Positions 7,184 to 32,061 of a stretch of 37,153 nucleotides of DNA are shown piece after piece (within the stretch, counting starts at the first letter, position 1; every line of letters starts with the position of its first letter). Made by a program: the position numbers and the translations under genes. The notes below the pieces were generated by a model. It saw nothing but the letters and a program-made list of their open reading frames with translations, was not told where the DNA came from and made no database searches. The DNA comes from a virus (taxonomy: Duplodnaviria > Heunggongvirae > Uroviricota > Caudoviricetes): IMG/VR virus record IMGVR_UViG_3300021400_002728, positions 1 to 37,153 of that record. One strand, given 5' to 3'.

Positions 7184-7921
7184 TTAGAACTTCAGCTGTT
7201 CAAATACTTTACCAAGTGATTCATGAATTACCAGATCAGCGATATTATCTTTTTCAGTTTCTGACATATTGATAATAACAAGCTTGCCATTAAAGATTCT
7301 TTTATTAACAAGACTGTTTGCAGGATATACTGAAAGTGATGTACCACCTACAATAAGTAGATCTGCATCCATAATCTTATATGAAGCTATACCAAATTCT
7401 GGTGGAAGCATCTCACCATAAAGTGTAACTCTAGGTCTGATTACTCCATCACATTCTGGACACTTAGGAACTGCGTCTTTACTTTCAAAGATATAGTCAT
7501 AAGGGAACTGTTTATGACAATCTTCACAATATACCGACTGAGTAGTTCCATGAATCTCAAGAACATTCTTACTTCCAGCCTTCTGATGAAGTCCGTCAAT
7601 GTTTTGTGTTACTATCCACAGATCTTTCTTCTGTTCAAGCTCTGCGAGCTTATAATGAGTAATATTAGGTTCTATATTACGAGTGTCCATCTTCTGTCTA
7701 TAGAACTCATAGAATACTTCTGGCTTATCATAAAGACAATCACAGCTTAACAGATATTCAGGCTGGTATTTTTCAAACTGCACATCATGCTGATTATAGA
7801 GACCATCTTTTGACCTGAAGTCCGGAATACCACTTTCAGTAGATACTCCAGCTCCACCGAAAAATACAATCTTATTAGCATTGTCTATATATTCCTGCAG
7901 AGTCTTTATTTCATCTGACAT
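7184..7921 (-). CDS. cobB: Sir2/CobB-family NAD+-dependent protein deacylase
   Basis: GGAGVSTESGIPDFRS, TQNIDGLHQKAG, EIHGT, CxxC...CxxC zinc site, RPRVTLYGE, VGGTSLSVYPA. Confidence 0.93.
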   Translation of the reverse strand: MSDEIKTLQEYIDNANKIVFFGGAGVSTESGIPDFRSKDGLYNQHDVQFEKYQPEYLLSCDCLYDKPEVFYEFYRQKMDTRNIEPNITHYKLAELEQKKDLWIVTQNIDGLHQKAGSKNVLEIHGTTQSVYCEDCHKQFPYDYIFESKDAVPKCPECDGVIRPRVTLYGEMLPPEFGIASYKIMDADLLIVGGTSLSVYPANSLVNKRIFNGKLVIINMSETEKDNIADLVIHESLGKVFEQLKF

Positions 7922-9035: not shown

Positions 9036-9066
9036 TTATTTCGCATCCTTTATAATTAAATAGTCT

Positions 9067-9656: not shown

Positions 9657-10490
9657 TTACCTATTCTTATTATGTCCTGCACCAGCCTTTTTAGCTTGTT
9701 TACGATTTTCTTTAGATTCTTTTTTATTAGGAACATGAGGTCGTTTAGCTAATTCAGCTTTAATAACCTTTACATTCATATTATGCTTTACTGTACATGA
9801 ATGTGACATACAGCATTCACAATAGTCAGTATAAAAATGTTGTCCATGTAACAATTCTAAAAGTTGTTTAGTATGATATTTCTTAAGTGTTTCTGGATTG
9901 ATTAAAGAACTACAATCTGCTATGTCTTTGTCGCGAATAGTATCAAATACAATAGATACCGCAGATTTTATACTTTTTTCAGTATAGTCATTATGAATAG
10001 TAGTTCTAACATTAACAGTTGTGAAATCTGGACTAGCAGAATCTCTCTTATCAAGATATTCTCTACTAATTTGATCTCTATCTATTACTTTTTTAATTCT
10101 GGTCTCTTCATCAGAAGAAACAAGAATCTTATATTCACATAACCACCAAAAGTCTGTATGAGGAAGTAAGATCCAATCAAGCACTACTTTATTACTATAA
10201 AGAGTATTCAAAATTTCTTTCTTCATATAATCATAAATACAGTCAGAAAGAGCTTTCATCTCATCTCTATTAGAGAATACAATATCACCAAGTCTCTTTC
10301 TGTCTACATGTCCATATTCATCTTCGATGTCAGGATATTTAGATTTAATTGTGTTGATAATTTCTGGTTGAAGAAGCGCTTTATGACCAATCTGATCAAT
10401 ATCTACATATTGATAATTAAGTCTTTTAGCTAATGCTTTCGCGAAAGTTGATTTACCACTACCAGACTTTCCTGTTACGCCAATTATCAT
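9657..10490 (-). CDS. coaE: dephospho-CoA kinase-like P-loop kinase with C-terminal extension
   Basis: IIGVTGKSGSGKST, VDIDQIGH and VDRKRLGDIVFSN motifs typical of CoaE. The last about 90 aa (Cys/His cluster, basic tail) are not CoaE-like. Confidence 0.8.
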   Translation of the reverse strand: MIIGVTGKSGSGKSTFAKALAKRLNYQYVDIDQIGHKALLQPEIINTIKSKYPDIEDEYGHVDRKRLGDIVFSNRDEMKALSDCIYDYMKKEILNTLYSNKVVLDWILLPHTDFWWLCEYKILVSSDEETRIKKVIDRDQISREYLDKRDSASPDFTTVNVRTTIHNDYTEKSIKSAVSIVFDTIRDKDIADCSSLINPETLKKYHTKQLLELLHGQHFYTDYCECCMSHSCTVKHNMNVKVIKAELAKRPHVPNKKESKENRKQAKKAGAGHNKNR

Positions 10491-10690: not shown

Positions 10691-11533
10691 TTATCCAAGA
10701 AGAGTATTAAACTCTTCCTCTGTAATTACCTTAATACCAAGATCCTTAGCTTTCTTAGACTTACCAGAAGTAGAGGTCTTGTCGTTACAAATGAGATATG
10801 TAAGATTCTTATTAACTCCAGCGATCTTACCGCCATTAGCTTCAATAATCTTAATCATATCTTCTCTCTTCATAGAGAGTGAACCAGTGATACAGAAGCT
10901 CATGTTATCAAGCTTACCACCAACAACTCTCTGCTTAACTGTAATGTAGTTAAGTACATCATTGATCTCAGAATAATTGAATTCAGCGATTACCTTTGCG
11001 GTAGTAGCACCAATACCGTTAATTTTAGTAAAGTCATAGCCAGTATTGACTGCATTCATGAAATCATCCCAAGTTGTAAAGGTATCTGCTAAAATGTTAG
11101 CTGTCTGCTTCTCAACATTAGGAATACCTGCAGAAGCAATGATCTTCCAAAGTTCAAGAGAGGTAGGAATACCTTCAAGAATCTTATCTACAGATCCTTC
11201 ACCATAACCTTTCATATGAACCCATTCATCTATATGATCTTTGAGTTTGAAGATGTCACTCATCTTGGTCAACCAACCAACCTTAATAAGATCTCTTACA
11301 GTTGCAGTGGACATAGATTCAATATCAAGTCCATGCGCGCCAATGAAATGAAGAAGCTTACCTTCAATTTTAGCACCACAATCAGGATTTGTACACACTA
11401 AAACTTCAGTATTGTACTTCTTCTCAATTCTTGTAGCACCACCACATCTAGGACAGGTAGTAGGAATCTGAATTGTCTGCCCATAAGCAGCTTCGATCTT
11501 TTTATCATTAACTTTCTTTAAGAGTGTGTTCAT
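10691..11533 (-). CDS. ligA: NAD+-dependent DNA ligase, C-terminal half (Zn finger, HhH repeats, BRCT)
   Basis: CPRCG...VCTNPDC zinc finger, LDIESMS / GYGEGS / GIPNVE / GIGATTA HhH-like repeats, and a BRCT domain (FCITGSL..KRED..IEANGG...LTYLICN...SGKSKKAKDLGIKVITEEEF). It has its own promoter and GGAGG RBS. Confidence 0.9.
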   Translation of the reverse strand: MNTLLKKVNDKKIEAAYGQTIQIPTTCPRCGGATRIEKKYNTEVLVCTNPDCGAKIEGKLLHFIGAHGLDIESMSTATVRDLIKVGWLTKMSDIFKLKDHIDEWVHMKGYGEGSVDKILEGIPTSLELWKIIASAGIPNVEKQTANILADTFTTWDDFMNAVNTGYDFTKINGIGATTAKVIAEFNYSEINDVLNYITVKQRVVGGKLDNMSFCITGSLSMKREDMIKIIEANGGKIAGVNKNLTYLICNDKTSTSGKSKKAKDLGIKVITEEEFNTLLG

Positions 11534-13880: not shown

Positions 13881-13910
13881 TATTATTAAATAGCTTAAAT
13901 TGTTAAATTT

Positions 13911-14265: not shown

Positions 14266-15909
14266 TTAAATTTTACTAATAATATCAAATACTGGATATG
14301 AGAAGTCTGTCTTCTTATATTTGAAATACTCCTCATCATTAGGTGCAAATAACCACCATCCACATTCTACATGAGCGCTAGTATCAGTTAAATCTATAAC
14401 CTGATATTCAAAATCTGAATTAGCTTCATACATCGAATATAAAGTTTCATTATACTGATCTACATAATGCTCGTATGACTGGACAACATAAACTTCTTCT
14501 AATGATGTTTCAGATGTAAAGTCTAAATCATATCCATCAATCAATACCGCTTTCTTAAAGTCTCCAACATTTAGATACTTATGAAAATCCCACGCGCCTA
14601 AACTAACTCCGCAATAATATAAGTCAGTATGTGGAAGTGAATCGACGACCTCTTTTACATAAGAGGACTTGATCTTACCATTATATCCATCTCTATAGAA
14701 GAACACTATTGTGCAGTCAGGCTCAATAGAACCATCTTGGATGTATTGGTAAAGTCCAGTTGTGTTGTAACTTCCATCAATTCCACCACCCATACCTGGA
14801 ATAAAGATCATAAGTGGTTTATTTGCAGGATCTTCAGGTACATAAACTCTATAGTTCTTATATGTATGGTTGAAAGCTTGTGATAAATAGTAGTATGCGG
14901 TAGATTCCTTAACTGAAGCTATGTCATGAATCTGGAATGTACATCCACCAGTTTTTCCTAAGATTCTACTATATCCATCATTATCCTGAAAATGCCACCA
15001 TTCAGATGCCAGACCGGTCATACCAGATTCAGTAAATATAAGATCTAGATTTATAGCATCTTCTGTCATAGTAGATACAAATTCACCACTACTTCCTGAA
15101 GTATACTTACATGACAATGTGCTTAACTCATGCATAGGACTCTGCATAGCTATTTCTTCTCTAGTCTCAATGTCAACCAAAGTTACGTCTAGTGCAGCTC
15201 CAGTATTATGAGTAGATGTTCCTTGTGCTAAGAACCAACCTTGTCCCCAACCATAAGATTTTCCATTATCAACTAAAGTATTGATATTTTGTTTAACTTC
15301 TGCATTTATATTATATAGAGCACCTAATTTCTCAGCAGCAAGAGTAGTTACTGATTTAGGTCTATATGAATCACAAATCATCAAAGAATAGTTAAAGCTA
15401 TGTGCGATATACTGAGCTTTAGCAACTTTCTTAGATGTACTATATAGCATTGGTACAGCAAATTCTTCATATCCAAGTCTGGAATTATAAACCTTACCTA
15501 AGTCATAAAGCTGTTCACCAGTTAGTTCTGGGATATCCTGTAATGACGACCGGTAAATCGAACTATATGCATTAGTAATATTATATTCAATTGATGGAAT
15601 GACATCTGGGAGATTTATGAAACACCATTTATGTTCTATAAATCCAACATCTTGTCCATATTGAACGCACCAATAATTACCAACTTTGCTTAAAATACAG
15701 AATGCATTTCCGGCTGAAACAGTAAAGATAGTTTTAGAATTAGCATTAGGTTGCTCTTTTGCTAACTGATCACAAGTTGACCAACCAGTTGCACCAATTA
15801 TGCTTTTCTCAAAATAATTCTCAGATTCTTCTGCATATACCTTTACACTAAAAATACCTACTACAATTAACATAATAATTATAGCAGGTATGATTTTTCT
15901 AAGTTTCAT
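14266..15909 (-). CDS. secreted VanX/M15D-type D-Ala-D-Ala peptidase fused to a C-terminal alpha/beta hydrolase
   Basis: Signal peptide ending VKVYA; SH3-like N-terminal segment; DSYRP, STHNTGAALD and EWWHF zinc-peptidase motifs; C-terminal IFIPGMGG and GVSLG (G-x-S-x-G). Confidence 0.8.
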   Translation of the reverse strand: MKLRKIIPAIIIMLIVVGIFSVKVYAEESENYFEKSIIGATGWSTCDQLAKEQPNANSKTIFTVSAGNAFCILSKVGNYWCVQYGQDVGFIEHKWCFINLPDVIPSIEYNITNAYSSIYRSSLQDIPELTGEQLYDLGKVYNSRLGYEEFAVPMLYSTSKKVAKAQYIAHSFNYSLMICDSYRPKSVTTLAAEKLGALYNINAEVKQNINTLVDNGKSYGWGQGWFLAQGTSTHNTGAALDVTLVDIETREEIAMQSPMHELSTLSCKYTSGSSGEFVSTMTEDAINLDLIFTESGMTGLASEWWHFQDNDGYSRILGKTGGCTFQIHDIASVKESTAYYYLSQAFNHTYKNYRVYVPEDPANKPLMIFIPGMGGGIDGSYNTTGLYQYIQDGSIEPDCTIVFFYRDGYNGKIKSSYVKEVVDSLPHTDLYYCGVSLGAWDFHKYLNVGDFKKAVLIDGYDLDFTSETSLEEVYVVQSYEHYVDQYNETLYSMYEANSDFEYQVIDLTDTSAHVECGWWLFAPNDEEYFKYKKTDFSYPVFDIISKI

Positions 15910-18938: not shown

Positions 18939-20027
18939 TTACTTCTCAGCCTTTGCAATCTGAGGAATAATCATATTAGCACGAAAAACCCATATTTTCT
19001 GACCAATATATGGTTTTTCTCCAAGTAATTCTTTCATAATAGAAATATTATGCATTGATGCATTCTGAATAGTAGCACCCTCAATAACAACGGGTTTGAA
19101 TGTAGCAACAGGAGTGATAGCTCCACTCTTACCTACCGACCAAGTAATTCCAGTGAGTTCAGTTTCAAACAGTTCATCATAAAACTTGAAAGCGAAACCA
19201 CCACGGAAGGAATGCTCATCATGACCTTTTGCCATATAAGACTTGTAATCATTGATCTTGTATACCAGACCATCGATAGGGTACTTTTTAGCAGCAGATT
19301 TCTGTCTCATTCTTTCCTGCTGAGCTTCAAGGTTTTCAGTATTGGTATATTCCCAATCAACTGTCACAAACTTGAGATCTGCAAGTTTCTGAAGCTTAAC
19401 ATCCAGATCATCTTCACCAGTGATCATGTCCCATGCAACAAATGTAAGGCATCTTCTCTCGCACTCATCAGGATTGTCAAGTCTAATAGAACCTGAAGCA
19501 AAGTTTCTAGGATTCTTGAACATACTAGAAAATTCTTCGAAGTCATCATACTTACAAATAACTTCACCATCAATTACGATAGTATCTTTAACTGCAATAG
19601 TCTTAGGAATAGACGGAAGTCTTTTTGCATTTTCTGTAATATCTTCACCAACAGTTCCATTTCCACGAGTTTCAGCAGATACGAGCTTACCATTCTCATA
19701 CTTGAGAGAACAAGTAAGTCCATCCATCTTCAACATAGTGATTGACTTTTCCTTAAGCCACTTCTTAAGAACTGCAGGATCTTTGGTCTTATCAAGAGAA
19801 AGCATCAAGTGGTTATGAGTAACCTTCTTGAGTTTATTCTGAATATCAAACTGAATTGTAGCTGAAGGAGACTTAGGATCAACATAACCAGTCTCTTCTT
19901 CATATGCACAACACTCAAAATACAACTGATCCCATGCTTCATCGCTGATCTCAGGATTTCCTTCGTCATACTTCTTAGTGTAGTAATTCAGCTTCTCAAT
20001 ATTCGCTGTATATTCTTCTCTTGTCAT
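18939..20027 (-). CDS. ligA: NAD+-dependent DNA ligase, N-terminal half (domain Ia, adenylation domain, OB fold)
   Basis: YDEGNPEISDEAWD (domain Ia), HLMLSLDK, MLKMDGL (KxDG), TRGNGTVGED, IDGEV, NPRNFASG, IDGLVYK, AFKF, VGKSGAITPVA, ASMHN, RANMIIPQI. It ends in TAA right after the OB fold. The ATG at 20027 follows GGAGG. Confidence 0.93.
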   Translation of the reverse strand: MTREEYTANIEKLNYYTKKYDEGNPEISDEAWDQLYFECCAYEEETGYVDPKSPSATIQFDIQNKLKKVTHNHLMLSLDKTKDPAVLKKWLKEKSITMLKMDGLTCSLKYENGKLVSAETRGNGTVGEDITENAKRLPSIPKTIAVKDTIVIDGEVICKYDDFEEFSSMFKNPRNFASGSIRLDNPDECERRCLTFVAWDMITGEDDLDVKLQKLADLKFVTVDWEYTNTENLEAQQERMRQKSAAKKYPIDGLVYKINDYKSYMAKGHDEHSFRGGFAFKFYDELFETELTGITWSVGKSGAITPVATFKPVVIEGATIQNASMHNISIMKELLGEKPYIGQKIWVFRANMIIPQIAKAEK

Positions 20028-20064
20028 TGATAAGACCTCCATACATTTGATTTATTATGTATTT

Positions 20065-21254: not shown

Positions 21255-21343
21255 AATTTATAGTCCTTTCTTTATAATATAATGAACGCTTAGCTATATA
21301 TTATAAAATATTCCCTTCTATTATAATTAAATAGCTTTTAATT

Positions 21344-21380: not shown

Positions 21381-22481
21381 TTAAAGTTTTTCAAAAAGTT
21401 TCATGGCTTCTTCAATAGTCTTATCCATATCATAATACTTATAACTACCAAGTCTACCGCCAAAAATAATTTTAGATTCATTTGTAGCTAATTCTTGATA
21501 CTGACTAAGAAGTTGATTATTTTTATCATCATTTACTGGATAAAATGGTTCATCTCCAAGTTTCCATTCAGAACTATATTCTCTAGAGATATATGTCTTA
21601 GGAAGATCATGTCCTTCTTCATCTTTACCAAACTCAAACCACTTATGCTCAATAATTCTAGTCCAAGGAGTTTCTCTATCAGTATAATTTACTGCAGCAT
21701 TTCCCTGAAAACTTGATTTATCAAGAAGTTCATTTTCAAATCTTACAGAACGGTATTCAAGATTTCCTAAACTATAATTGAAATACTCATCAATTGGTCC
21801 AGTATAAATAACTTTATCAAAGTCATTAGCTAATTCTTTATGCTCTAAGAAATTAATATTAAGTCTAACTTCAATTCCTTCAAGCATTTTTTCAATCAGC
21901 TTAGTATATCCACCAATAGGAATACCTTGATATTTAGCATTAAAATAATTATTATCAAAAGTCAATCTAACAGGAAGTCTTTTAATAATAAATGCTGGAA
22001 GATCTTTACAATCTCTACCCCACTGTTTTTCAGTATAACCTTTAATAAGCTTCTCATAAATATCTCTACCTACAAGACTAATTGCCTGCTCTTCAAGATT
22101 CTGAGGTTCATGATCGATTTCTTTTCTCTGCTCCTCAATTTTAGCAAGAGCTTCTTCTGGAGTTACTACACCCCACATCTTATTAAAAGTGTACATATTA
22201 AAAGGTAAAGAATAAAGTTCACCTTTATAGTTAGCTACTGGACTATTAGTAAATCTATTAAATTCTACAAATGAATTTACATAATCCCAAACTTCTTTAT
22301 TATTAGTATGGAAAATATGAGCGCCATATTTATGTACATTTATACCCTCAATCTTTTCAGTATAAACATTTCCACCAATATTAGGTCTCTTATCAATTAC
22401 TAATACTTCATGACCAGCTTTCTTTAACTGTTGTGCTACAGTAGCTCCAAATAATCCTGATCCAACAATTAAGTACTTCAT
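21381..22481 (-). CDS. glf: UDP-galactopyranose mutase
   Basis: MKYLIVGSGLFG FAD-binding start, IGGNVY, HKYGAHIFHT, GYTEKQWG, RLPVRLTFDNNYF, YTGPID, TRIIEHKWF, FYPVND, GRLGSYKYYDMD. Confidence 0.96.
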   Translation of the reverse strand: MKYLIVGSGLFGATVAQQLKKAGHEVLVIDKRPNIGGNVYTEKIEGINVHKYGAHIFHTNNKEVWDYVNSFVEFNRFTNSPVANYKGELYSLPFNMYTFNKMWGVVTPEEALAKIEEQRKEIDHEPQNLEEQAISLVGRDIYEKLIKGYTEKQWGRDCKDLPAFIIKRLPVRLTFDNNYFNAKYQGIPIGGYTKLIEKMLEGIEVRLNINFLEHKELANDFDKVIYTGPIDEYFNYSLGNLEYRSVRFENELLDKSSFQGNAAVNYTDRETPWTRIIEHKWFEFGKDEEGHDLPKTYISREYSSEWKLGDEPFYPVNDDKNNQLLSQYQELATNESKIIFGGRLGSYKYYDMDKTIEEAMKLFEKL

Positions 22482-23524
22482 ACAATCTTACTCCATTCCT
22501 TCTTGAAATATTCTAAATCAGTAAATTTCTTCACTGACTCAGTATTAAATATCTTCTTAATAATCTTATCATAATCAGTCTCATTTATCTTATCCTGAAT
22601 ATGATCAATATCAACTACTAAATATCTCTTTACAATTCGATAAATATCAGGAAATGTATTCTTTAAATCAGTTAAATCTACATTATCTAATACTAATGGT
22701 AAACAATGATTTGATACAGCCTCTAAAAATCGAATAATACTAAATGTAGTCTTATCATAACTAGGAATAATTAAAGTAAACTTAGCATGAGCTAACTTAT
22801 CATAATATGTATTCTGATCTACATAGGTAGAATCTCTCTTAGTTATAATGCCTACATCTGATCTCTTAATCTTCTTTATCTTACTAGCCTTATCCACTAA
22901 ATATTGCCTATCTGGATTCATGGCTGTTCCATAAAATACAAAATCTAATGTCTTCTCAATGTCTTTACCATTCAAAAACATATATCTTTCGTAAGTAGGC
23001 ATATATACCATATTATTTTTATTTAATATATAAGTAGTTGTGCCATTAAATAAATCAGATAATTTACATTCTTGCGGATCTAATCCAAAATGAATAATAT
23101 TTTTATTTGAATTTTCTCTACAAATAACATAAGATTCAAGGACGGCTCTAGTAGATACGTAGTTCACACTATAATTATAATTTTTATCAGACATCCACTT
23201 TTCAAAACCATCTATAAAACTATGACATAAATAATTATTATACTTACAAATATTACTTGCAAATACAATAAGACTGTCTAAATCTTTAGTAGACTTTTTA
23301 ACATCTTTTATATAATCTTCCCAGTTTATATATTCATCATGCCAATAAATATGTCTATAGGCTACATCGTCTCTATCTAGTAGATTCTTTAATTTATTGC
23401 CTTTATATATATCTATTACTACTAGGTTTTCTGGTCCTACACTATCAATGATGGCATTCATATGGTATTTTATAGTATTTAATAAACCTTTAGTAATACC
23501 TATATTTAATAATAATCCTACCAT
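22478..23524 (-). CDS. GT-B fold glycosyltransferase resembling T4 DNA beta-glucosyltransferase
   Basis: KTLDFVFYGT...DRQ and AKFTLII...FSIIRFLEAVSNHCLPLV parallel the T4 BGT C-domain as recalled (KTLDVIYGG; ALII...TLRVWE). It overlaps glf by 4 nt. Confidence 0.65.
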   Translation of the reverse strand: MVGLLLNIGITKGLLNTIKYHMNAIIDSVGPENLVVIDIYKGNKLKNLLDRDDVAYRHIYWHDEYINWEDYIKDVKKSTKDLDSLIVFASNICKYNNYLCHSFIDGFEKWMSDKNYNYSVNYVSTRAVLESYVICRENSNKNIIHFGLDPQECKLSDLFNGTTTYILNKNNMVYMPTYERYMFLNGKDIEKTLDFVFYGTAMNPDRQYLVDKASKIKKIKRSDVGIITKRDSTYVDQNTYYDKLAHAKFTLIIPSYDKTTFSIIRFLEAVSNHCLPLVLDNVDLTDLKNTFPDIYRIVKRYLVVDIDHIQDKINETDYDKIIKKIFNTESVKKFTDLEYFKKEWSKIV

Positions 23525-23527
23525 TAT

Positions 23528-24307
23528 TTAACCTCTTATATCTGAAACATATTTAGTGAATACTTGCTGTATAATAGCAGCTTTATCTGCTGCGTCATTT
23601 AATAATTTAGTATCTATATTATCATTTATCATAGTATTATCAAAATCATACGATAAATAAGCTGTAGCAATTTTATTGTTATTATTTGTAGTTCTATATA
23701 TCCAGTTTAAAGAAAATCCTAGATCTTTTTCAATACTAGTCTTTTTCTTTTTCAATTTTTCAAACAATTCAAAATCATTAGAAGCAAAATCTATTACTAG
23801 TTTAAACTCTTCTAAAGAATTAAAACATATACCCGCCCAAGCCTCTGAGTATCCGACTGGTACCTTTAATGCATGTGAAGTATATGTATCTAAATTACAT
23901 TTAGTATTCAAGTTATTTGCATATTTACTAAGTTGATTCCAGAATGGAGTATATTTACTAGTAGTAGATTTTCGTGCAGAATTGATGGTATTAGTAATCT
24001 CAGGAAAAACTTGAGTACCCATTCTAGAAAGAACTCGTTTAGCTCTATCTTTATCTACAGCAAATAATTCAGTTTTACTATCTTTAGCTCCAATAACTCG
24101 GCTTTCTCTAAAAATATCATGCATAATATTTTCAATTTCACTATAGTCAGAGCATTCAATTACAAAATAAGTTTTAAGGCCATTCATATTTCTATAGCCA
24201 TTTGTTTCTAATTCAGATTGGCATCGTCTATTCCAGTTATCTGATTTGCCAATTTTAATAATACCGTCTACAGCAGTAGTCATTATATAAACATAACCCT
24301 TTGCCAT
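23528..24307 (-). CDS. GIY-YIG (T5orf172-like) nuclease fused to a DUF4268-like domain
   Basis: GYVYIM...IIKIGKS...R...E..MH..F...TELF N-terminal domain; C-terminal FW.QL...LFEKL...K..IEKDLGF.LNW pattern. Confidence 0.72.
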   Translation of the reverse strand: MAKGYVYIMTTAVDGIIKIGKSDNWNRRCQSELETNGYRNMNGLKTYFVIECSDYSEIENIMHDIFRESRVIGAKDSKTELFAVDKDRAKRVLSRMGTQVFPEITNTINSARKSTTSKYTPFWNQLSKYANNLNTKCNLDTYTSHALKVPVGYSEAWAGICFNSLEEFKLVIDFASNDFELFEKLKKKKTSIEKDLGFSLNWIYRTTNNNNKIATAYLSYDFDNTMINDNIDTKLLNDAADKAAIIQQVFTKYVSDIRG

Positions 24308-24326
24308 ATTTACTTTATCCTTTCAT

Positions 24327-24360
24327 AAAAATATAGGCTAGCTTTTTAGGCTAGCCTATT
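24327..24360 (-). terminator. intrinsic terminator inside the DNA-modification cluster
   Basis: ATAGGCTAGC-loop-GCTAGCCTAT followed by ATTTTT. Confidence 0.75.
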
Positions 24361-24364
24361 TGAA

Positions 24365-25345
24365 TTAAACGTTTGTTGCATCTGGTGTAGTATTAGCCCA
24401 ATCAAACTTAGTGCTTCTACTGGTCTTGAAACCATCTTCTACAATAAGTTTCTTAAGACCTGCTACATCGTGGTTTTTAATAATGTCCTTATAGCAGTCT
24501 TCATAGTAAGCATTAGCAAGAGGAATACCTAATTCAAGTTTCTTCATAATGATACGTCTCTGAGGTCTAGCATTTACCTGACCCTTCTTTTCCATGAACT
24601 TGATAGTATCTCCCCAAGTCTTATACATATAGACTCCGATTTCAGTCCACTTATCTACTCCAGTATTTGCTACAGACTTATCAGGTTCCATAACATCAGT
24701 GATATAGGTAAGACTAGGAATAGTACCAGTCATTAATCCCTTAGAAAGAATCTGAAGAGTAAGATCGAAATCATCCCAACCATGATCTTTTCTATATTCG
24801 ATTCCATTTTCTACAAGATCCTTAACATTCAAATGAATCATCTGAATAGGAAATCTTACATAGTCAACAGGAGGTCTCTTTCTAAAGTCATTAAATACTG
24901 CAGCATTTTCAGTAATACATCCAGTCTGAGTAAGATGCTGATCAGCATTCTCAATAATAGACTGAAATTCTGCGAAGAAATCATATACAGAAGTCTTCAA
25001 CTTAATAGAACGATACTTTGTAGGATCCTTCTTCTGAACTCCTGCTTCAAGCTTATGTACTGAAGGAATATCATCATCAAGTACGAAGATATTTTCATAT
25101 CCCTTCTCTAACATAGTCTTATTGATAAAGTTTCTCTTAGGTACGATACCTCTGAATCCTTCACAGTAGCATACCGTAAATAGACCAGAATCAATAATCT
25201 CCTTATAATTCTCTGCATCATCAGGATATACAAACAAGAAAAGATTTAATCCCTGTTCATATCCATTCTTCAGCATCTGTAAGGTCTTTGCCTTACTTCC
25301 TCTTTTGTAGCTAGGTACTACAATTGGCCATAATTCTTTCTTCAT
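24365..25345 (-). CDS. GT-A fold DNA glycosyltransferase (TAGT / T2-T6 glucosyl-hmC glucosyltransferase-like)
   Basis: IVVPSYKRG, GIVPKRNFI, IFVLDDDI (DxD) and WDDFDLTLQILSKG motifs typical of this family. Confidence 0.8.
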   Translation of the reverse strand: MKKELWPIVVPSYKRGSKAKTLQMLKNGYEQGLNLFLFVYPDDAENYKEIIDSGLFTVCYCEGFRGIVPKRNFINKTMLEKGYENIFVLDDDIPSVHKLEAGVQKKDPTKYRSIKLKTSVYDFFAEFQSIIENADQHLTQTGCITENAAVFNDFRKRPPVDYVRFPIQMIHLNVKDLVENGIEYRKDHGWDDFDLTLQILSKGLMTGTIPSLTYITDVMEPDKSVANTGVDKWTEIGVYMYKTWGDTIKFMEKKGQVNARPQRRIIMKKLELGIPLANAYYEDCYKDIIKNHDVAGLKKLIVEDGFKTSRSTKFDWANTTPDATNV

Positions 25346-25349
25346 TCTA

Positions 25350-25745
25350 TCAGTTCCTTTCTAATTTATTTATTACATCTTGTGCAATTTGAAACATTGT
25401 CATTTTAGACGTATTATATTCGAGAATAGTTAAACCTTCTTGTTTTAGAAGATTTTTATATTTTTCAAATAATTCTACATCTTCATGATAATTAGTTTTA
25501 GGTTCATTGGCAAGTTTGCATCTAATATTCCAATCGTCTTCATCCACAGTTAAATAGATGATAATAGGCTTATAATCAATTTCATACTCATAGTTACGAT
25601 GATATTTTTCAGAATATACCATCATAGATAATAAGCCTCTATCATGAATGACATACTTATAATTAGATAATTGATTTACATATGGAATTAAAGAGTTCTT
25701 ACCAGATTTATCAATTCCTTCTACTTCAATAAGATAGTTTCTCAT
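25350..25745 (-). CDS. small thymidylate-kinase-like nucleotide kinase (131 aa)
   Basis: IEVEGIDKSGK P-loop, IHDRG motif, PIIIYLTV. Confidence 0.75.
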   Translation of the reverse strand: MRNYLIEVEGIDKSGKNSLIPYVNQLSNYKYVIHDRGLLSMMVYSEKYHRNYEYEIDYKPIIIYLTVDEDDWNIRCKLANEPKTNYHEDVELFEKYKNLLKQEGLTILEYNTSKMTMFQIAQDVINKLERN

Positions 25746-25771
25746 ATAATTAAATAGCCGCTCGTACGGTG

Positions 25772-25807
25772 AAAAAGGTAGTAGACTATGTTATAATCTA
25801 CTACCTA
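25772..25807 (-). terminator. intrinsic terminator
   Basis: AGGTAGTAGA-loop-TCTACTACCT followed by TTTT. Confidence 0.8.
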
Positions 25808-25812
25808 TTAAG

Positions 25813-27126
25813 TTAAACGCTATAAATAATGTTCTTAGATTTAAGCAGTTCAGTAAATGCATCCTTATCAGTAAACTTATTATCTACCCAATCAATAAGT
25901 TCATCCTTATTTTCAATAAGCTTACGAATATCAAGTCTCTCAGGAAGTGTTTCCATAGTTCCATAAGCAATATTCTTAGTAAACTTAAAGTCAGCATCAT
26001 ACATATGCATAGAGAATGCAAAGTGAGTATATGAACCATATCCAACACCAAGCTGATCTGCAATATATTTCTGAAGGAAAATAAAGTATGCAATATCGTT
26101 TCTAAGACCAAAGTTAAAATCATTTGATCTCATAACACAATTACAATCAAGTACATTATCTCTAATCTGATAGTTTAAGCAGATTGTACACATCTCATCC
26201 TTAGTTGTCTTAACATTAGGATTAGGTACATTGATATTAAGAACTGCTCTTCTAGAATAAGGATCATGTTTAAGTAAATCAATAATTGCTTCAATCTGAT
26301 TAAATCCATGCTTCTCCTGAAGAATATATCCATAAGCAGAATTAGCAGTCTTACCATCATCTGTTACTCTATTCCAAAACTTAGAGAATTTTGTAATAAA
26401 GTCAAGATCGTTTCTAGAAGACCAATACCAAAGAAGCTCTGCAGCTACATATGTAAGATTAGTTCCACCAGTCTTAAGGGTGATACATTCATTTCCCTCA
26501 ATATCATCAATAGTGAACTTATAATCAGTAAGTTCCTTAGTAGTTCCACGAGGATTCTGTGAAGGAATAGGATGACCAAAATCAAGAAGATCATTAGCAA
26601 GCTGTCTATAAGCTATATTAGGTGTAATCTTATTGATATGTTCAGCTACCCATTCATCAAGCTTATCATAACAACCCTTCTTAGCTACGTCAATGACATA
26701 AAAGTTCTTATAGTTATACTTGCTAAATTTCTTAGCATATTTCTTAAACCATTTATTTTGCTCATCCATTTCGGCAAGATAATTTTCTTCACCTCTAGCA
26801 ATAAGTCGCTCATTGATAACCTGCATCTTAGAAGTAATAAAGATAATGAAAATATCGTTATTATCAATAATTCGTCTTTCTACTTCTTCAAGCTCCTTGT
26901 TATTCATCTTTGCCTTACGGTCATATACCTTGGGATAAACATATTCTCCTACATGGAATCGATCAAATACTGTAGAAGATCTATAGTCCAATAGATCTAA
27001 GTGATACGCTAAATCATTTCTTGTGGACGCTGTAGAATGCAGAATAGAAAAACCATACTTGTCTCTGATTTTCTCGGCAAGCGTAGTTTTACCAGCCGCA
27101 TCGAGTCCTTCTAGAATTACGTTCAT
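25813..27126 (-). CDS. dNMP kinase fused to a thymidylate-synthase-fold dCMP hydroxymethylase (T4 gp42-like)
   Basis: N-terminus ILEGLDAAGKTT and FDRFH. C-terminus AELLWY, NSAYG, SRRAV, EMCT (catalytic Cys), MRSNDFNFGLRND and SMHMY. The RND Asp sits where dUMP-specific enzymes have Asn. Confidence 0.85.
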   Translation of the reverse strand: MNVILEGLDAAGKTTLAEKIRDKYGFSILHSTASTRNDLAYHLDLLDYRSSTVFDRFHVGEYVYPKVYDRKAKMNNKELEEVERRIIDNNDIFIIFITSKMQVINERLIARGEENYLAEMDEQNKWFKKYAKKFSKYNYKNFYVIDVAKKGCYDKLDEWVAEHINKITPNIAYRQLANDLLDFGHPIPSQNPRGTTKELTDYKFTIDDIEGNECITLKTGGTNLTYVAAELLWYWSSRNDLDFITKFSKFWNRVTDDGKTANSAYGYILQEKHGFNQIEAIIDLLKHDPYSRRAVLNINVPNPNVKTTKDEMCTICLNYQIRDNVLDCNCVMRSNDFNFGLRNDIAYFIFLQKYIADQLGVGYGSYTHFAFSMHMYDADFKFTKNIAYGTMETLPERLDIRKLIENKDELIDWVDNKFTDKDAFTELLKSKNIIYSV

Positions 27127-27153: not shown

Positions 27154-27188
27154 ATTATATCATGTATACTTCTATTTGTAAATAGATT
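27154..27188 (-). promoter_or_regulatory. phage early promoter, copy 9 (drives the DNA-modification cluster)
   Basis: AATCTA-TTTACA-N17-TATAAT with TGA extension. Confidence 0.8.
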
Positions 27189-29335: not shown

Positions 29336-30100
29336 TTATTTATATGTTACATCAATATTGTATAATCCGCCATCATAACCAACAAATCGTATGTCATACG
29401 TATCATACTCATAGAATAGCATAAAGCTATCACTTTTTATAAAGCTGTCATTTACAGGTATTCCAGTAAAATATTCCTGAATTTGCTCAGGTGAACTACC
29501 AAAACTAATCCAGTTGGGCAATGCACAAGTCATAAGTTGTTCATTATAATTACTTCCTGCCTGTAAAGTGAAACCTACACATGTGAGTTCAGTAATAGGT
29601 TTTTCAGTTCCATCCGAAGATCTAAACTTAAATGTAATACTGCCTTCACCAGAAGTAGGTTCAGTCTTAACGTCCATTGATGTAGCACAAATTGTTTCAT
29701 CAACATCAGTTTTAATTACATACTTTCCAACAGATTCAGTATAAAATGATCCGAACTTTTCTAGTAAGTATTCATAATTACATGGAAATGCGACCATCTT
29801 ACCGTCGATAGAAACTGTATTCATATCAAGTACAGAATTCATATTAGGATCATCAGTTACATTGTAATACATGTCTAAAGGATCGGCAATTGTAGGCTTA
29901 ACCTTTTCTTCAGGTTCTTCCACAACAATTACCTCAACCTCATTATTAGAAGTAGTTATTTCTTCTGTAGGCTTATTAACTACTTCATTCTCCGCATAAT
30001 TATGCTCAGGAATAACTTCAGGTTCCTCTTCTTTACCACAGGCAGCCATCGAAACTACCATAAGAAGAGATAGACCTAATATAAAAATCTTTTTCATCAT
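29336..30100 (-). CDS. acidic lipoprotein (254 aa)
   Basis: MMKKIFILGLSLLMVVSMAAC lipobox signal, then an E/P-rich linker. Confidence 0.82.
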   Translation of the reverse strand: MMKKIFILGLSLLMVVSMAACGKEEEPEVIPEHNYAENEVVNKPTEEITTSNNEVEVIVVEEPEEKVKPTIADPLDMYYNVTDDPNMNSVLDMNTVSIDGKMVAFPCNYEYLLEKFGSFYTESVGKYVIKTDVDETICATSMDVKTEPTSGEGSITFKFRSSDGTEKPITELTCVGFTLQAGSNYNEQLMTCALPNWISFGSSPEQIQEYFTGIPVNDSFIKSDSFMLFYEYDTYDIRFVGYDGGLYNIDVTYK

Positions 30101-32061
30101 TTTCCTCCATTCTTCTTACTCTTTTTACGAGTAGGCTTAGTGGCCTTAATTTTATCTTTCAATGCTTCAATAAAAGTAAAGTTCTCATCTTTTTCAGATT
30201 GTAAATCGAACGTATTGTCAACATTATCTACAACAGTATCAATGTTTGCAGATTTGCTACTAATCATTTCAATAAACAAACTGTCAAGCAACGAATTCAT
30301 ACAATATATATAATAGATCATGCAGCTCTCTGTTTGGCCGGTTCTACAAATACGATCTTCAACCTGAACCATATCAGAAGGTACCCATGCATAGTCAATA
30401 ATAATCATTGTATGAGCAGCAGTCAATGTAATACCTACACCACCTGCTTGCATATTTAAGATACATACTGTTTTCTTTTTAGCTTGAAAATCATCAATAG
30501 CTTGCTGTTTTGCTTGATCAGACATACCACCACGAATCTCACAACAAATATCCTTAAAGTGATCTTTGAGTAAATCTGCCGAATCTACAAAATTAGTTAC
30601 AATAACTACACTTTCACCAGCATCTAATAAAGTCTCAGCTAAATCAATTGCAGCGTCAATCTTATATAAACTCAACATCTTTCTACCAGTCATAGCAAGA
30701 CCCATATAGGTATCATCCTCTTCTGGTTCATAAAGACGTTTTTCAATATTTGTATATTCTCTCTTAAAATGAGGATCAAGAGGAATAAACTGTCTCTGTT
30801 TCTTAAGATTAGGCAATACGTCTCTTTTAAGACGTCTAACCATTAAATTACTAAGTAATGCATGTAATTGATCTGAGTTAGAGTTACCAGAGAAGTCTTT
30901 ACCAAAGTAAGTTTCTTTAGGATCACAGAACTTATTAGCAAAGTTAAGAAATGCCCACTTACTATTAAAATCAAAAGCTTCACATTTAAGCATCTTAAGA
31001 ATATTATATAAGTCAAGGTTATGTGAAGGTAATGGAGTACCGCTAAGAAGATAACAATACTCAACTGCGTCTGCAAGTTCAAGTACAGATTTAGCTCTCT
31101 TACTAGTAGGATTTCCCCAATTGTTAACTGCTTTACATGCATGACATTCATCGACAAATATACAGTTAAAGTATTTCTTTAAATCATCTAAGAATTTAAC
31201 AACTGATCCATAGCTAATAATTGTCCAATCTTTACCAAAGTGAGGTTCTTCAGCATTAAGCTGAACCTGAACATCAGCATTAGGGCATACGTTAGTAATT
31301 TCTCGATACCAGTTAAGTCTCAAAGATGCAGGGCAAATAACTAACTTAGGAACATTAGTAAGACTTGCTCCAACTAAAACAGAGATGAATGTTTTTCCAC
31401 AACCCATCTCATGACCGAGTAGAACTCTCTTCTTTTTAATTATTTTTGTAGCATCTTCAATCTGGAATTCATAAGGAGTGAAAGGTAAAGATAACTTACT
31501 CAAATCAATGAGTTGATTAGCAGATTTATTCTGGTAGAATAAACCTGCCTCAATATCATCAATATCATACTTAATCATAAGACGATCAAGTAACTTAGTA
31601 AAGTTATCTAACTGATCTCTCGAAATAGAAATAACTAACTTACTAGGATCAGCTTTACTGTCTACATATTTCAAACAGTTTTTATTCTTGGCTTCCCATA
31701 AGTCAGAAACAAGATTTTTGTCATTTATATTAACTTCATATTCATAGAGTCCAAACTTATTGACTCTACCTGTATTCTTACATTCAACACTTGTAACAGC
31801 TTTCTTATAATCTGTTACAGGATGTTCGAAACCAATAATAGATCCACCATTAGTTGATCTAAAATATTGCATACGAAGGTCTCTTGCTTCAGCCTTTTCA
31901 TCTATAGGATAATTACAAAGGCAGCAAGCAATCAGATATAAGTCATAATCATTTGGATTGTCTAGAGATGCAATCTTAAGCATTGTACGTTCGTCTGATA
32001 ACTTATACAATTTAGCGTCAAGCATCTCCTTATTTTTCTTTAACAAATCTAACATGACCAT
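30097..32061 (-). CDS. SNF2-family (HARP/SMARCAL1-like) helicase/ATPase
   Basis: LGHEMGCGKT (Walker A), FVDECH (DExH), LLSGTP, AGGVGITLT, QVEDRICRTGQ. Confidence 0.9.
   Translation of the reverse strand: MVMLDLLKKNKEMLDAKLYKLSDERTMLKIASLDNPNDYDLYLIACCLCNYPIDEKAEARDLRMQYFRSTNGGSIIGFEHPVTDYKKAVTSVECKNTGRVNKFGLYEYEVNINDKNLVSDLWEAKNKNCLKYVDSKADPSKLVISISRDQLDNFTKLLDRLMIKYDIDDIEAGLFYQNKSANQLIDLSKLSLPFTPYEFQIEDATKIIKKKRVLLGHEMGCGKTFISVLVGASLTNVPKLVICPASLRLNWYREITNVCPNADVQVQLNAEEPHFGKDWTIISYGSVVKFLDDLKKYFNCIFVDECHACKAVNNWGNPTSKRAKSVLELADAVEYCYLLSGTPLPSHNLDLYNILKMLKCEAFDFNSKWAFLNFANKFCDPKETYFGKDFSGNSNSDQLHALLSNLMVRRLKRDVLPNLKKQRQFIPLDPHFKREYTNIEKRLYEPEEDDTYMGLAMTGRKMLSLYKIDAAIDLAETLLDAGESVVIVTNFVDSADLLKDHFKDICCEIRGGMSDQAKQQAIDDFQAKKKTVCILNMQAGGVGITLTAAHTMIIIDYAWVPSDMVQVEDRICRTGQTESCMIYYIYCMNSLLDSLFIEMISSKSANIDTVVDNVDNTFDLQSEKDENFTFIEALKDKIKATKPTRKKSKKNGGK

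Follow-up and report, generated by a model that had tools for sequence, protein, structure and literature searches.

The DNA of the Enterococcus phages VPE25 and VFW (Andrewesvirinae) is bisulfite-resistant, MspI-resistant, and PvuRts1I-sensitive, consistent with glycosylated 5-hydroxymethylcytosine (hmC), and the second glycosyltransferase (GT) of these phages was likened to a galactofuranosyltransferase by its authors in 2016 (PMC4999554). According to passages of Lee et al. (NAR 2026, PMC13326640), arabinofuranosyl-5-hydroxycytosine has been shown for the RB69 and DLP3 phages, UDP-arabinofuranose-dependent DNA GT-B enzymes set a precedent for furanosyl transfer to DNA, and the base-proximal sugar of the RL38J1 phage is galactose, the authors proposing that the phage UDP-galactopyranose mutase (Glf) makes UDP-galactofuranose for DNA modification. 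Metavirome mining has also, in passages of a preprint, already reported GT-A and GT-B genes beside thymidylate synthase (TS) homologues and sugar-modifying genes, and its passages on accessory sugar genes do not name Glf (bioRxiv 10.1101/2023.12.21.572611). Here, we describe a cluster in a viral genome (IMG/VR record IMGVR_UViG_3300021400_002728) that joins a predicted hmC pathway to a Glf, and weigh whether galactofuranose (Galf) is part of the sugar on its DNA. The stretch analysed, hereafter the window, is 37,153 nucleotides long and forms the first 37 kb of this 394,266-bp record, which has direct terminal repeats.

Animal-gut metagenomes, including several with a bovine label, contain near-identical sequences, and the source is best explained as a 394-kb jumbo phage of the rumen or gut, the stretch holding its cytosine-hypermodification cluster. 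All genes in the window lie on the minus strand. The six co-oriented genes listed in an earlier note on this DNA were all recovered as open reading frames (ORFs) on that strand with the same coordinates, as was the 4-nt overlap it reported between the GT-B stop and the Glf start (22478-22481). The cluster, which is embedded among replication genes (SNF2 helicase and ligase), consists of the following features:

27126-25813, minus strand: kinase-hydroxymethylase fusion ORF, 437 amino acids (aa)
26617..27126, minus strand: N-terminal deoxynucleoside monophosphate (dNMP) kinase domain of the fusion, thymidylate-kinase-like (PF02223, 28.3 bits; phrog_761; Walker A GLDAAGKT)
25813..26616, minus strand: C-terminal thymidylate-synthase-superfamily domain of the fusion, predicted deoxycytidine monophosphate (dCMP) 5-hydroxymethylase of the T4 gp42 type (PF00303; residues)
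25745-25350, minus strand: 'second kinase' (kin2) ORF, 131 aa, a degenerate kinase-domain paralogue (weak Thymidylate_kin and DTMP_kinase matches below cut-off)
25345-24365, minus strand: GT-A ORF, 326 aa, a GT-A fold DNA glycosyltransferase of the TAGT family (PF20691; phrog_842; motifs)
24307-23528, minus strand: GIY-YIG ORF, 259 aa, a T5orf172/MUG113 (GIY-YIG superfamily) and DUF4268 gene (Pfam matches above cut-off; phrog_18411 'homing endonuclease')
23524-22478, minus strand: GT-B ORF, 348 aa, a GT-B fold glycosyltransferase; its small, unnamed family is confined to phages, and T4 beta-glucosyltransferase (BGT) is its closest structural match
22481-21381, minus strand: Glf ORF, 366 aa, a UDP-galactopyranose mutase (PF03275, 1.7e-81; TIGR00031; 1I8T alignment)

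The TS domain of the fusion matches PF00303 at 1e-24 (87 bits; cut-off 24.3), and its closest sequences in the PDB are the cytidine monophosphate (CMP) hydroxymethylase MilA (3e-25) and the T4 dCMP hydroxymethylase (5e-14). It is the sole TS-family gene in the 394-kb genome; ThyA was not found there, and ThyX was not searched for. Passages of Lee et al. (NAR 2026, PMC13326640) associate N177D in ThyA with a cytosine substrate and L143D/E with a non-methyl product, and give D169N (E. coli ThyA numbering) as the mark of flavin-dependent 5-hydroxy-dCMP synthases. We aligned the window domain with E. coli ThyA, T4 gp42, RB69 gp48, RL38J1 gp216 and canonical ThyA, Aeromonas phage 25 gp42, and the homologues of the VPE25, Planchet, and ATCCB phages. 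At the ThyA positions, the window enzyme displays W80, Y94, R126/R127, L143D, C146, H147T, C168N, D169, G173, N177D, H207, and Y209, a pattern identical to that of T4 gp42, and the catalytic C146 along with R126, R127, R166, S167, H207, and Y209 are all kept. The N177D change is common to the window, T4 gp42, VPE25, and ATCCB, whereas canonical ThyA enzymes retain Asn; L143D is likewise the same as in T4 gp42, an acidic residue that admits water and leads to the hydroxymethyl product. A pathway to 5-hydroxycytosine (5hoC) via a 5-hydroxy-dCMP synthase was rejected, since the window keeps D169, W80, and G173 where RB69 gp48 and RL38J1 gp216 show D169N, W80A, and G173V. Given that its residue pattern is that of T4 gp42, the domain should make 5-hydroxymethyl-dCMP and not 5-hydroxy-dCMP, and its substrate, judging from the attached dNMP kinase and from its occurrence in a phage, would be dCMP rather than CMP.

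The N-terminal domain of the fusion has the intact Walker A motif (GxxxxGK[ST]) of a P-loop dNMP kinase. In the VPE25, Planchet, and ATCCB phages, the TS homologue is directly preceded by a separate small kinase gene homologous to this domain, and the fusion recurs in the IMG/VR relatives L149-L152. The fusion therefore ties the small kinase to the hydroxymethylation pathway, in which the domain is presumed to be the analogue of T4 gp1, and provides independent confirmation that the small kinases beside phage TS homologues share that pathway. With a Thymidylate_kin-like P-loop domain, a PF00303 domain, and gp42-type residues, the reading as a kinase-dCMP hydroxymethylase fusion that had been put forward is supported.

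The GT-A protein, correctly recognized earlier as a glycosyltransferase of this fold, matches the TAGT family (PF20691) at 3.8e-14 (53.5 bits; gathering cut-off 27.5) and the T-even PHROG phrog_842, 'beta-glucosyl-HMC-alpha-glucosyltransferase', at 6e-15, and is the only TAGT of the whole genome. Passages of the metavirome preprint describe the motif R...DDD...EDY/F in phage DNA GT-A enzymes and report that TAGT-type GT-A enzymes glycosylate 5hmC directly in DNA (bioRxiv 10.1101/2023.12.21.572611). The window protein carries the R...DDD...acidic-aromatic active-site motif of TAGT, with R15, D90-D91-D92, and D192/D194 beside F193 invariant in a family alignment that includes a 23%-identical member. 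No BLAST similarity was noted between the window GT-A and the 'nucleotide sugar synthetase-like' GT of VPE25, a protein with no Pfam match.

The description of the second transferase as a BGT-like GT-B holds for its fold and fails for its sequence. The protein displays a two-Rossmann GT-B fold closest to BGT, with T4 BGT as the top structural match and T4 alpha-glucosyltransferase (AGT) and the HY126 DNA GT also high; small-molecule GTs are among its structural neighbours as well, and the viral structure library BFVD returned generic GT-B matches only. Sequence membership of PF09198 (CAZy GT63) was rejected: the GT-B has no match to this family, which the VPE25 and ATCCB GTs match at 9e-62 and 9e-22; BLAST found no similarity to T4 BGT, VPE25 b-gt, ATCCB bgt, or the Planchet GTs; and the hhalign probability against T4 BGT is 0.7%. 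Comparison of the GT-B family profile by hhalign with T4 BGT, the two unnamed genes by the Aeromonas phage 25 Glf, and two genes by the Glf of locus L215 gave nothing significant, a weak test with single-sequence targets. Invariant acidic and basic residues occur in the family alignment (D149, E179, R206, and R265). These assignments support the view of the cluster as a pre-replicative hmC pathway accompanied by DNA glycosyltransferases.

The last gene was called unmistakable in the earlier note, and the analysis agrees: it scores at equivalog level (TIGR00031, 410 bits; cut-off 303.75), and its alignment to the solved E. coli Glf (1I8T; 1e-151, residues 3-360) is full-length and includes the N-terminal dinucleotide-binding motif. 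By sequence, it is an orthodox, intact UDP-galactopyranose mutase (EC 5.4.99.9).

The fusion, TAGT, GT-B, and Glf genes are kept together between the SNF2 helicase and the ligase in two relatives, the 401-kb L017 and the 155-kb L018. In L017, a sugar-1-phosphate nucleotidyltransferase is inserted between GT-B and Glf, and in L018, a C5 cytosine DNA methyltransferase takes this place (L018:8074-9204); the Glf thus stays inside the cluster of these 72-85%-identical relatives despite the swapped neighbour genes. A similar arrangement occurs in an unrelated phage with PolIII-alpha and RecA (L022/L023), where dUTPase_2, kinase, Glf, GT-B, GT1, and TS homologue genes stand in a row, again with a 4-nt overlap, although its GT-B is only 30% identical to that of the window and its Glf is very divergent. 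As side observations on the relatives, L152 has a C5 methyltransferase directly after the TAGT (L152:17856-18965), such an enzyme being odd for a phage predicted to swap cytosine for hmC, and the L018 SNF2 helicase (L018:1-1592) carries an intein (PT-HINT and Intein_splicing matches).

Further cases of a Glf together with a cytosine-type TS homologue were noted in L075, L215, ATCCB, the Aeromonas T4-like phages, and Pootjesviridae. In a Glf tree, the TS-linked label needs six changes (bootstrap range 5-7), at least two of them forced by well-supported branches, indicating that Glf was captured more than once into such clusters. Glf lies beside pyrimidine-hypermodification genes in at least two separate phage lineages, and probably in five or six. 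The L215 locus (L215:3945-10880) reads DUF1599 (nucleotide-modification-associated), TS homologue, a 511-aa deaminase-domain protein, Glf, and two unknowns of 380 and 459 aa; it is possibly another Glf-containing cluster for pyrimidine hypermodification, built to a different design. In the Aeromonas T4-like phages, Glf adjoins two unnamed genes, with the gp42-type enzyme elsewhere in the genome. In Aeromonas phage 25 (L008:5001-8272), these are two unannotated genes of 358 and 348 aa with no Pfam match, and the Glf and the 358-aa gene are flagged 'not conserved in 44RR'; the pair may encode DNA glycosyltransferases, and the phage that carries them is culturable and has a gp42-type hydroxymethylase.

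These components suggest the following route. In its well-supported opening steps, the gp42-type domain would convert dCMP to 5-hydroxymethyl-dCMP, the attached dNMP-kinase domain would phosphorylate this to the diphosphate, and host nucleoside diphosphate (NDP) kinase and the phage replisome would then place hmC in the DNA. After replication, as family and fold support, the TAGT-type GT-A and the BGT-like GT-B would decorate hmC, either at different hmC sites or sequentially to give a disaccharide. Lastly, we infer that the phage Glf turns host UDP-galactopyranose (UDP-Galp) into UDP-galactofuranose (UDP-Galf) and that at least one transferase installs Galf, the product then being Galf-hmC or a disaccharide containing Galf. 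The GT-B would be the likelier Galf transferase because it is translationally coupled to Glf both in the window and in the unrelated phage.

We consider it likely that the phage DNA carries glycosylated hmC, and put the odds that Galf is part of the DNA glycan at about even. Galf is the best single explanation of the cluster because the position of Glf is conserved, translationally coupled, and repeatedly recruited. To the joint claim, we give a probability of roughly 45%: that Galf-hmC, alone or in a disaccharide, is a real base in this megaphage clade, made via a new-family BGT-like GT-B and a host-captured Glf, and that Glf capture is a convergent route to furanosylated DNA, on hmC and on 5hoC, shared by the gut megaphages, the PolIII-alpha siphophage-like gut phages, and the ATCCB-like, Aeromonas T4-like, and Pootjesviridae phages. 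The proposal of Galf on hmC made in the earlier note thus keeps its gp42-type residues, its TAGT, and an intact Glf held in the cluster; the use of UDP-Galf by either GT is a prediction, and the GT-B family also occurs without Glf. Its claim of novelty narrows, given that furanosyl bases are established, that a phage Glf serving DNA hexosylation was already proposed for RL38J1 and Pootjesviridae, and that the triad of TS homologue, BGT, and Glf is already known from the isolated ATCCB phage. Our literature search returned no paper that links Glf to hmC or demonstrates the furanose ring of a DNA galactose.

Several observations weigh against Galf on the DNA, beginning with the fact that the donor sugar cannot be read from sequence. 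To our knowledge, the known galactofuranosyltransferases are GT-A enzymes of other families. Complete (100%) phage genomes were noted with the window GT-B family beside a TS homologue and no Glf anywhere, and the Glf-linked members are scattered through the GT-B family with no single subgroup. Fusion-bearing relatives also occur with other GT cassettes and no Glf: L150 and L151 have a BGT-family GT, and L152 has T5orf172, TAGT, and C5 methyltransferase genes. Among the 80 IMG/VR loci most similar to the window Glf, a TS homologue lies nearby in only one, most of the others appearing to be host or prophage-flank genes, and the closest of the surveyed viral-contig Glf genes (79% identity) sits in host DNA flanking a prophage. 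The reverse survey, of 80 IMG/VR loci of the window's TS subfamily, placed a Glf within 10 kb in only one. Because of the count from the Glf side, general co-occurrence with TS is not a property of viral-contig Glf genes, and the survey proposed earlier for glf and gp42-like genes shows recurrence in several phage lineages and no general association from either side. A search of the phage's own genome found no GalE, GalU/NTP_transferase, MazG, or dUTPase_2-type dCTPase. UDP-Galp must hence be supplied by the host, as GalE and GalU/NTP_transferase were not found, and, with no dCTPase-type gene found, full replacement of cytosine is not implied. A weak Epimerase match in the genome was rejected, being the Rossmann motif of Glf itself.

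Some of these observations also fit the strongest rival, in which the glycosylated hmC bears glucose or another host sugar and the Glf is a recently captured host gene with another use, such as remodelling of host surface polysaccharide via a GtrB-like transferase (for superinfection exclusion or receptor masking) or glycosylation of phage proteins. The window Glf clade nests tightly with host-like Glf genes beside prophage integrases, and Streptococcus suis prophages bear moron-like Glf genes at their ends. A possible consumer is also at hand: a GtrB/AglJ-like polyprenyl-phosphate hexose transferase (GT2, 381 aa, at 53.5-54.7 kb) lies 15-18 kb past the window end, within 52.1-55.3 kb of the genome (52109-55280; L145:6109-9280), flanked by a 467-aa protein of no known family and an S-adenosylmethionine (SAM) methyltransferase and near a GGDEF cyclase. 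This module looks like one for host-surface glycan modification and, as a possible alternative user of the nucleotide sugar, adds to the case against Galf on DNA, as do the complete genomes in which the GT-B family does without Glf. The Glf, however, lies 31 kb from the GtrB-like gene yet overlaps the GT-B gene by 4 nt, it remains in the cluster of close relatives while neighbours swap, and it has been recruited separately beside DNA GTs and TS homologues in unrelated phages. The nucleotidyltransferase that L017 holds between GT-B and Glf likewise points to supply of a sugar donor for the adjacent GTs. On balance, we regard this surface or protein role for Glf as unlikely, though as the most serious competitor to Galf on the DNA; if it were true, the phage would be an ordinary glycosyl-hmC phage with a host-derived surface-glycan gene.

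A second alternative keeps the sugar on the DNA and reverses the role of the mutase, which would run toward UDP-Galp or equilibrate the pools in UDP-Galf-rich hosts tapped by the phage, leaving galactopyranose on hmC. The mutase reaction is reversible with the pyranose side favoured; however, hosts generally produce UDP-Galp directly via GalE, and an extra mutase alters rates, not the equilibrium, so that the benefit to the phage is doubtful. In the passages concerned, Lee et al. identify the base-proximal sugar of RL38J1 only as 'galactose', with no ring form given, which leaves room for the pyranose, but they draw the pathway toward UDP-Galf (PMC13326640). We consider a galactopyranose product improbable.

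An equally improbable reading, with no glycosyl-hmC in the DNA at all and a TS homologue acting on CMP (as MilA does) or another pyrimidine, or GTs acting on a small molecule, RNA, or protein, could appeal to MilA of antibiotic biosynthesis as the top PDB sequence match, to the small-molecule GTs among the GT-B structural neighbours, and to the dedicated dCTPase not found in the genome search, but it runs against the fusion of the TS domain to a dNMP-kinase domain, the setting among replication genes (SNF2 helicase, ligase), the nearest isolated homologues from phages with experimentally modified cytosines, the DNA-directed nature of the TAGT family, and the adjacent dCMP deaminase and dUTPase-family genes (genome ~131652-132932; L146, L147), which fit a T4-like rewiring of the pyrimidine pool.

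The transcription signals of the cluster point to a more divided arrangement than the single operon behind one early promoter that had been read from the sequence. The following elements were identified:

27154..27182, minus strand: sigma-70/sigma-A-type promoter, TTTACA, 17-nt spacer, extended -10 TGnTATAAT (11/12 consensus plus TG)
25772..25805, minus strand: intrinsic-terminator-like hairpin and U-run directly after the fusion gene (-17.5 kcal/mol; z -6.07 against shuffles)
25746..25758, minus strand: phage-specific promoter-like motif GCTATTTAATTAT abutting the kin2 ATG, between the first hairpin and kin2
24333..24359, minus strand: intrinsic-terminator-like hairpin and U-run after GT-A (-15.6 kcal/mol; z -4.30)
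21323..21335, minus strand: second GCTATTTAATTAT copy, downstream of Glf, at the start of the next transcription unit

The promoter stands, as both hexamers and their spacing are kept ahead of the fusion orthologues of L017 and L018 while the spacer sequence varies; the single operon does not, since the two hairpins and the internal phage-specific motif split the cluster. With a conserved host-type promoter and its own terminator, the fusion gene is probably expressed first. The motif occurs four times in the window against 0.38 expected (9052-9064, 13882-13894, 21323-21335, and 25746-25758, minus strand). Its core CTATTTAATWAT has 35 copies in the genome, in every case on the coding strand, and the motif in the form RCTATTTAATWATA has 35 copies across the 394 kb, always on the coding strand and usually 10-40 nt before a start codon, and in many cases a second conserved element, similar to GAAAAATGACTTGTCT, comes after it. 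Given that the phage genome encodes its own multisubunit RNA polymerase, RCTATTTAATWATA is probably the promoter of that enzyme, perhaps with a conserved leader. Precursor synthesis may then be early and host-transcribed, with the DNA-level enzymes also served by phage transcription. Contigs from a bovine-gut RNA library include portions of the fusion, GT-A, GT-B, and Glf genes and span the GT-B/Glf junction, a weak hint of expression, as DNA can contaminate such libraries.

Two genes of the cluster appear to be passengers. The 'second kinase', proposed as a pathway member, is doubtful in that role: its Walker A motif is spoiled (GIDKSGKN, with Lys-Asn in place of Lys-Ser/Thr), a deletion of ~25 residues after the P-loop leaves it short of a full-length dNMP-kinase core, and no obvious Shine-Dalgarno sequence was seen before it, where the promoter-like motif reaches its ATG. 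Its position is occupied by an unrelated 156-aa ORF in L017 and by nothing in L018, and in another strain, represented by a contig from run X3, ~2.4 kb separate GT-A from the fusion's end, compared to ~0.48 kb in the window (25346-25822). The site appears to be a hot spot of gene replacement, and kin2 is probably decaying or accessory rather than core.

The GIY-YIG gene was correctly read as to domain, with matches above cut-off to PF10544 (34.9 bits; cut-off 20), PF13455 (36.2; 22.3), and DUF4268 (34.4; 27), and the pattern GYVYIM ... IKIGKS ... R/E is kept in an alignment of three orthologues. It behaves, however, as a variable passenger: it lies upstream of the TAGT in L017 and L152, downstream in the window, and L018 lacks it; its identity to the L017 copy is only 44%, compared to 83-93% for the flanking genes; and its N-terminal domain is conserved across orthologues while its C-terminal domain has diverged. 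On account of this shifting position, absence, low identity, and divergence, we read it as a free-standing homing endonuclease, likely a mobile homing-endonuclease-like insertion and not a pathway enzyme.

Around the cluster, PHROG and Pfam scans of the flanking ORFs without a family match (ten, then twenty ORFs) returned nothing relevant to the pathway. The SNF2 helicase gene lies at window 30097-32061, and the NAD-dependent DNA ligase is seemingly split into two genes 7.4 kb apart, one with the adenylation and OB domains and the other with the HhH and BRCT domains (window 18939-20042 and 10691-11533). The early region also encodes a Sir2-family protein (7184-7921) and a dephospho-CoA-kinase-like P-loop kinase (9657-10490), and a 547-aa protein with a D-Ala-D-Ala dipeptidase (M15) domain is present at 14266-15909.

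If the DNA does carry Galf, no hexofuranose would have been shown on a nucleobase before it, and hmC would gain a new form that probably escapes restriction enzymes as well as type IV systems specialized for glucosyl-hmC. The GT-B family would offer epigenetic-sequencing chemistry a new transferase that acts on DNA and possibly transfers furanosyl groups. The repeated placement of Glf by pyrimidine-hypermodification genes is testable, with ATCCB, Aeromonas phage 25 or AS-gz, and RL38J1 as culturable carriers.

Compared to known systems, the cluster follows the same logic as the T4 pathway (gp42, gp1, and the alpha- and beta-glucosyltransferases), with the same hydroxymethylase diagnostic residues, a dNMP kinase, and a GT-B that among known structures matches T4 BGT best; T4 also has a GIY-YIG homing endonuclease, segA, adjoining b-gt and gene 42. 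It departs from T4 in its kinase-hydroxymethylase fusion, a GT-B outside PF09198, a TAGT GT-A replacing the alpha-glucosyltransferase, and its Glf, and a gp56-type dCTPase was not found in the window phage genome. The VPE25 and VFW phages hold the closest isolated kinase and TS homologues (41-42% identity) in the gene order kinase, TS homologue, GTs. In contrast to the window, however, these phages encode the kinase and TS homologue separately and have a GT-B that truly belongs to the PF09198 BGT family. No similarity could be detected between their second GT and the window GT-A, and no Glf is present in the stretch examined around their TS homologue. The window GT-A falls in PF20691 with the R/DDD/acidic motifs, as in the clusters of TAGT with TET/5mYOX enzymes, but those make hmC after replication by methyltransferase and TET, whereas the window hmC would be made before replication by a TS homologue.

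The RB69, DLP3, and HY126 phages provide the parallel of a phage-made furanose nucleotide sugar (UDP-arabinofuranose) and GT-B transfer to a C5-oxygenated cytosine in DNA, differing in having a pentose rather than a hexose, 5hoC rather than hmC, and a donor derived from ribulose-5-phosphate, not from a mutase. RL38J1 and other Pootjesviridae share a phage Glf (45% identical to that of the window), a TS-superfamily enzyme, and several GTs, but the base is 5hoC from a D169N flavin-dependent synthase, where the window keeps D169, W80, and G173; the RL38J1 Glf also lies far from its TS and GT cluster, and its sugar is ether-linked, not hydroxymethyl-linked. A further parallel in gene content is the Lactobacillus phage ATCCB (Tybeckvirinae), an 80-kb phage whose DNA chemistry is not discussed in its describing paper, with nothing on it found in our literature search. 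Its GT-B belongs to the PF09198 family and no TAGT is annotated in the stretch shown, unlike in the window, but its kinase, D169-retaining cytosine-type TS homologue, GT-B, and Glf (52% identical to the window Glf) are contiguous, making ATCCB an isolated, culturable analogue of the proposed pathway.

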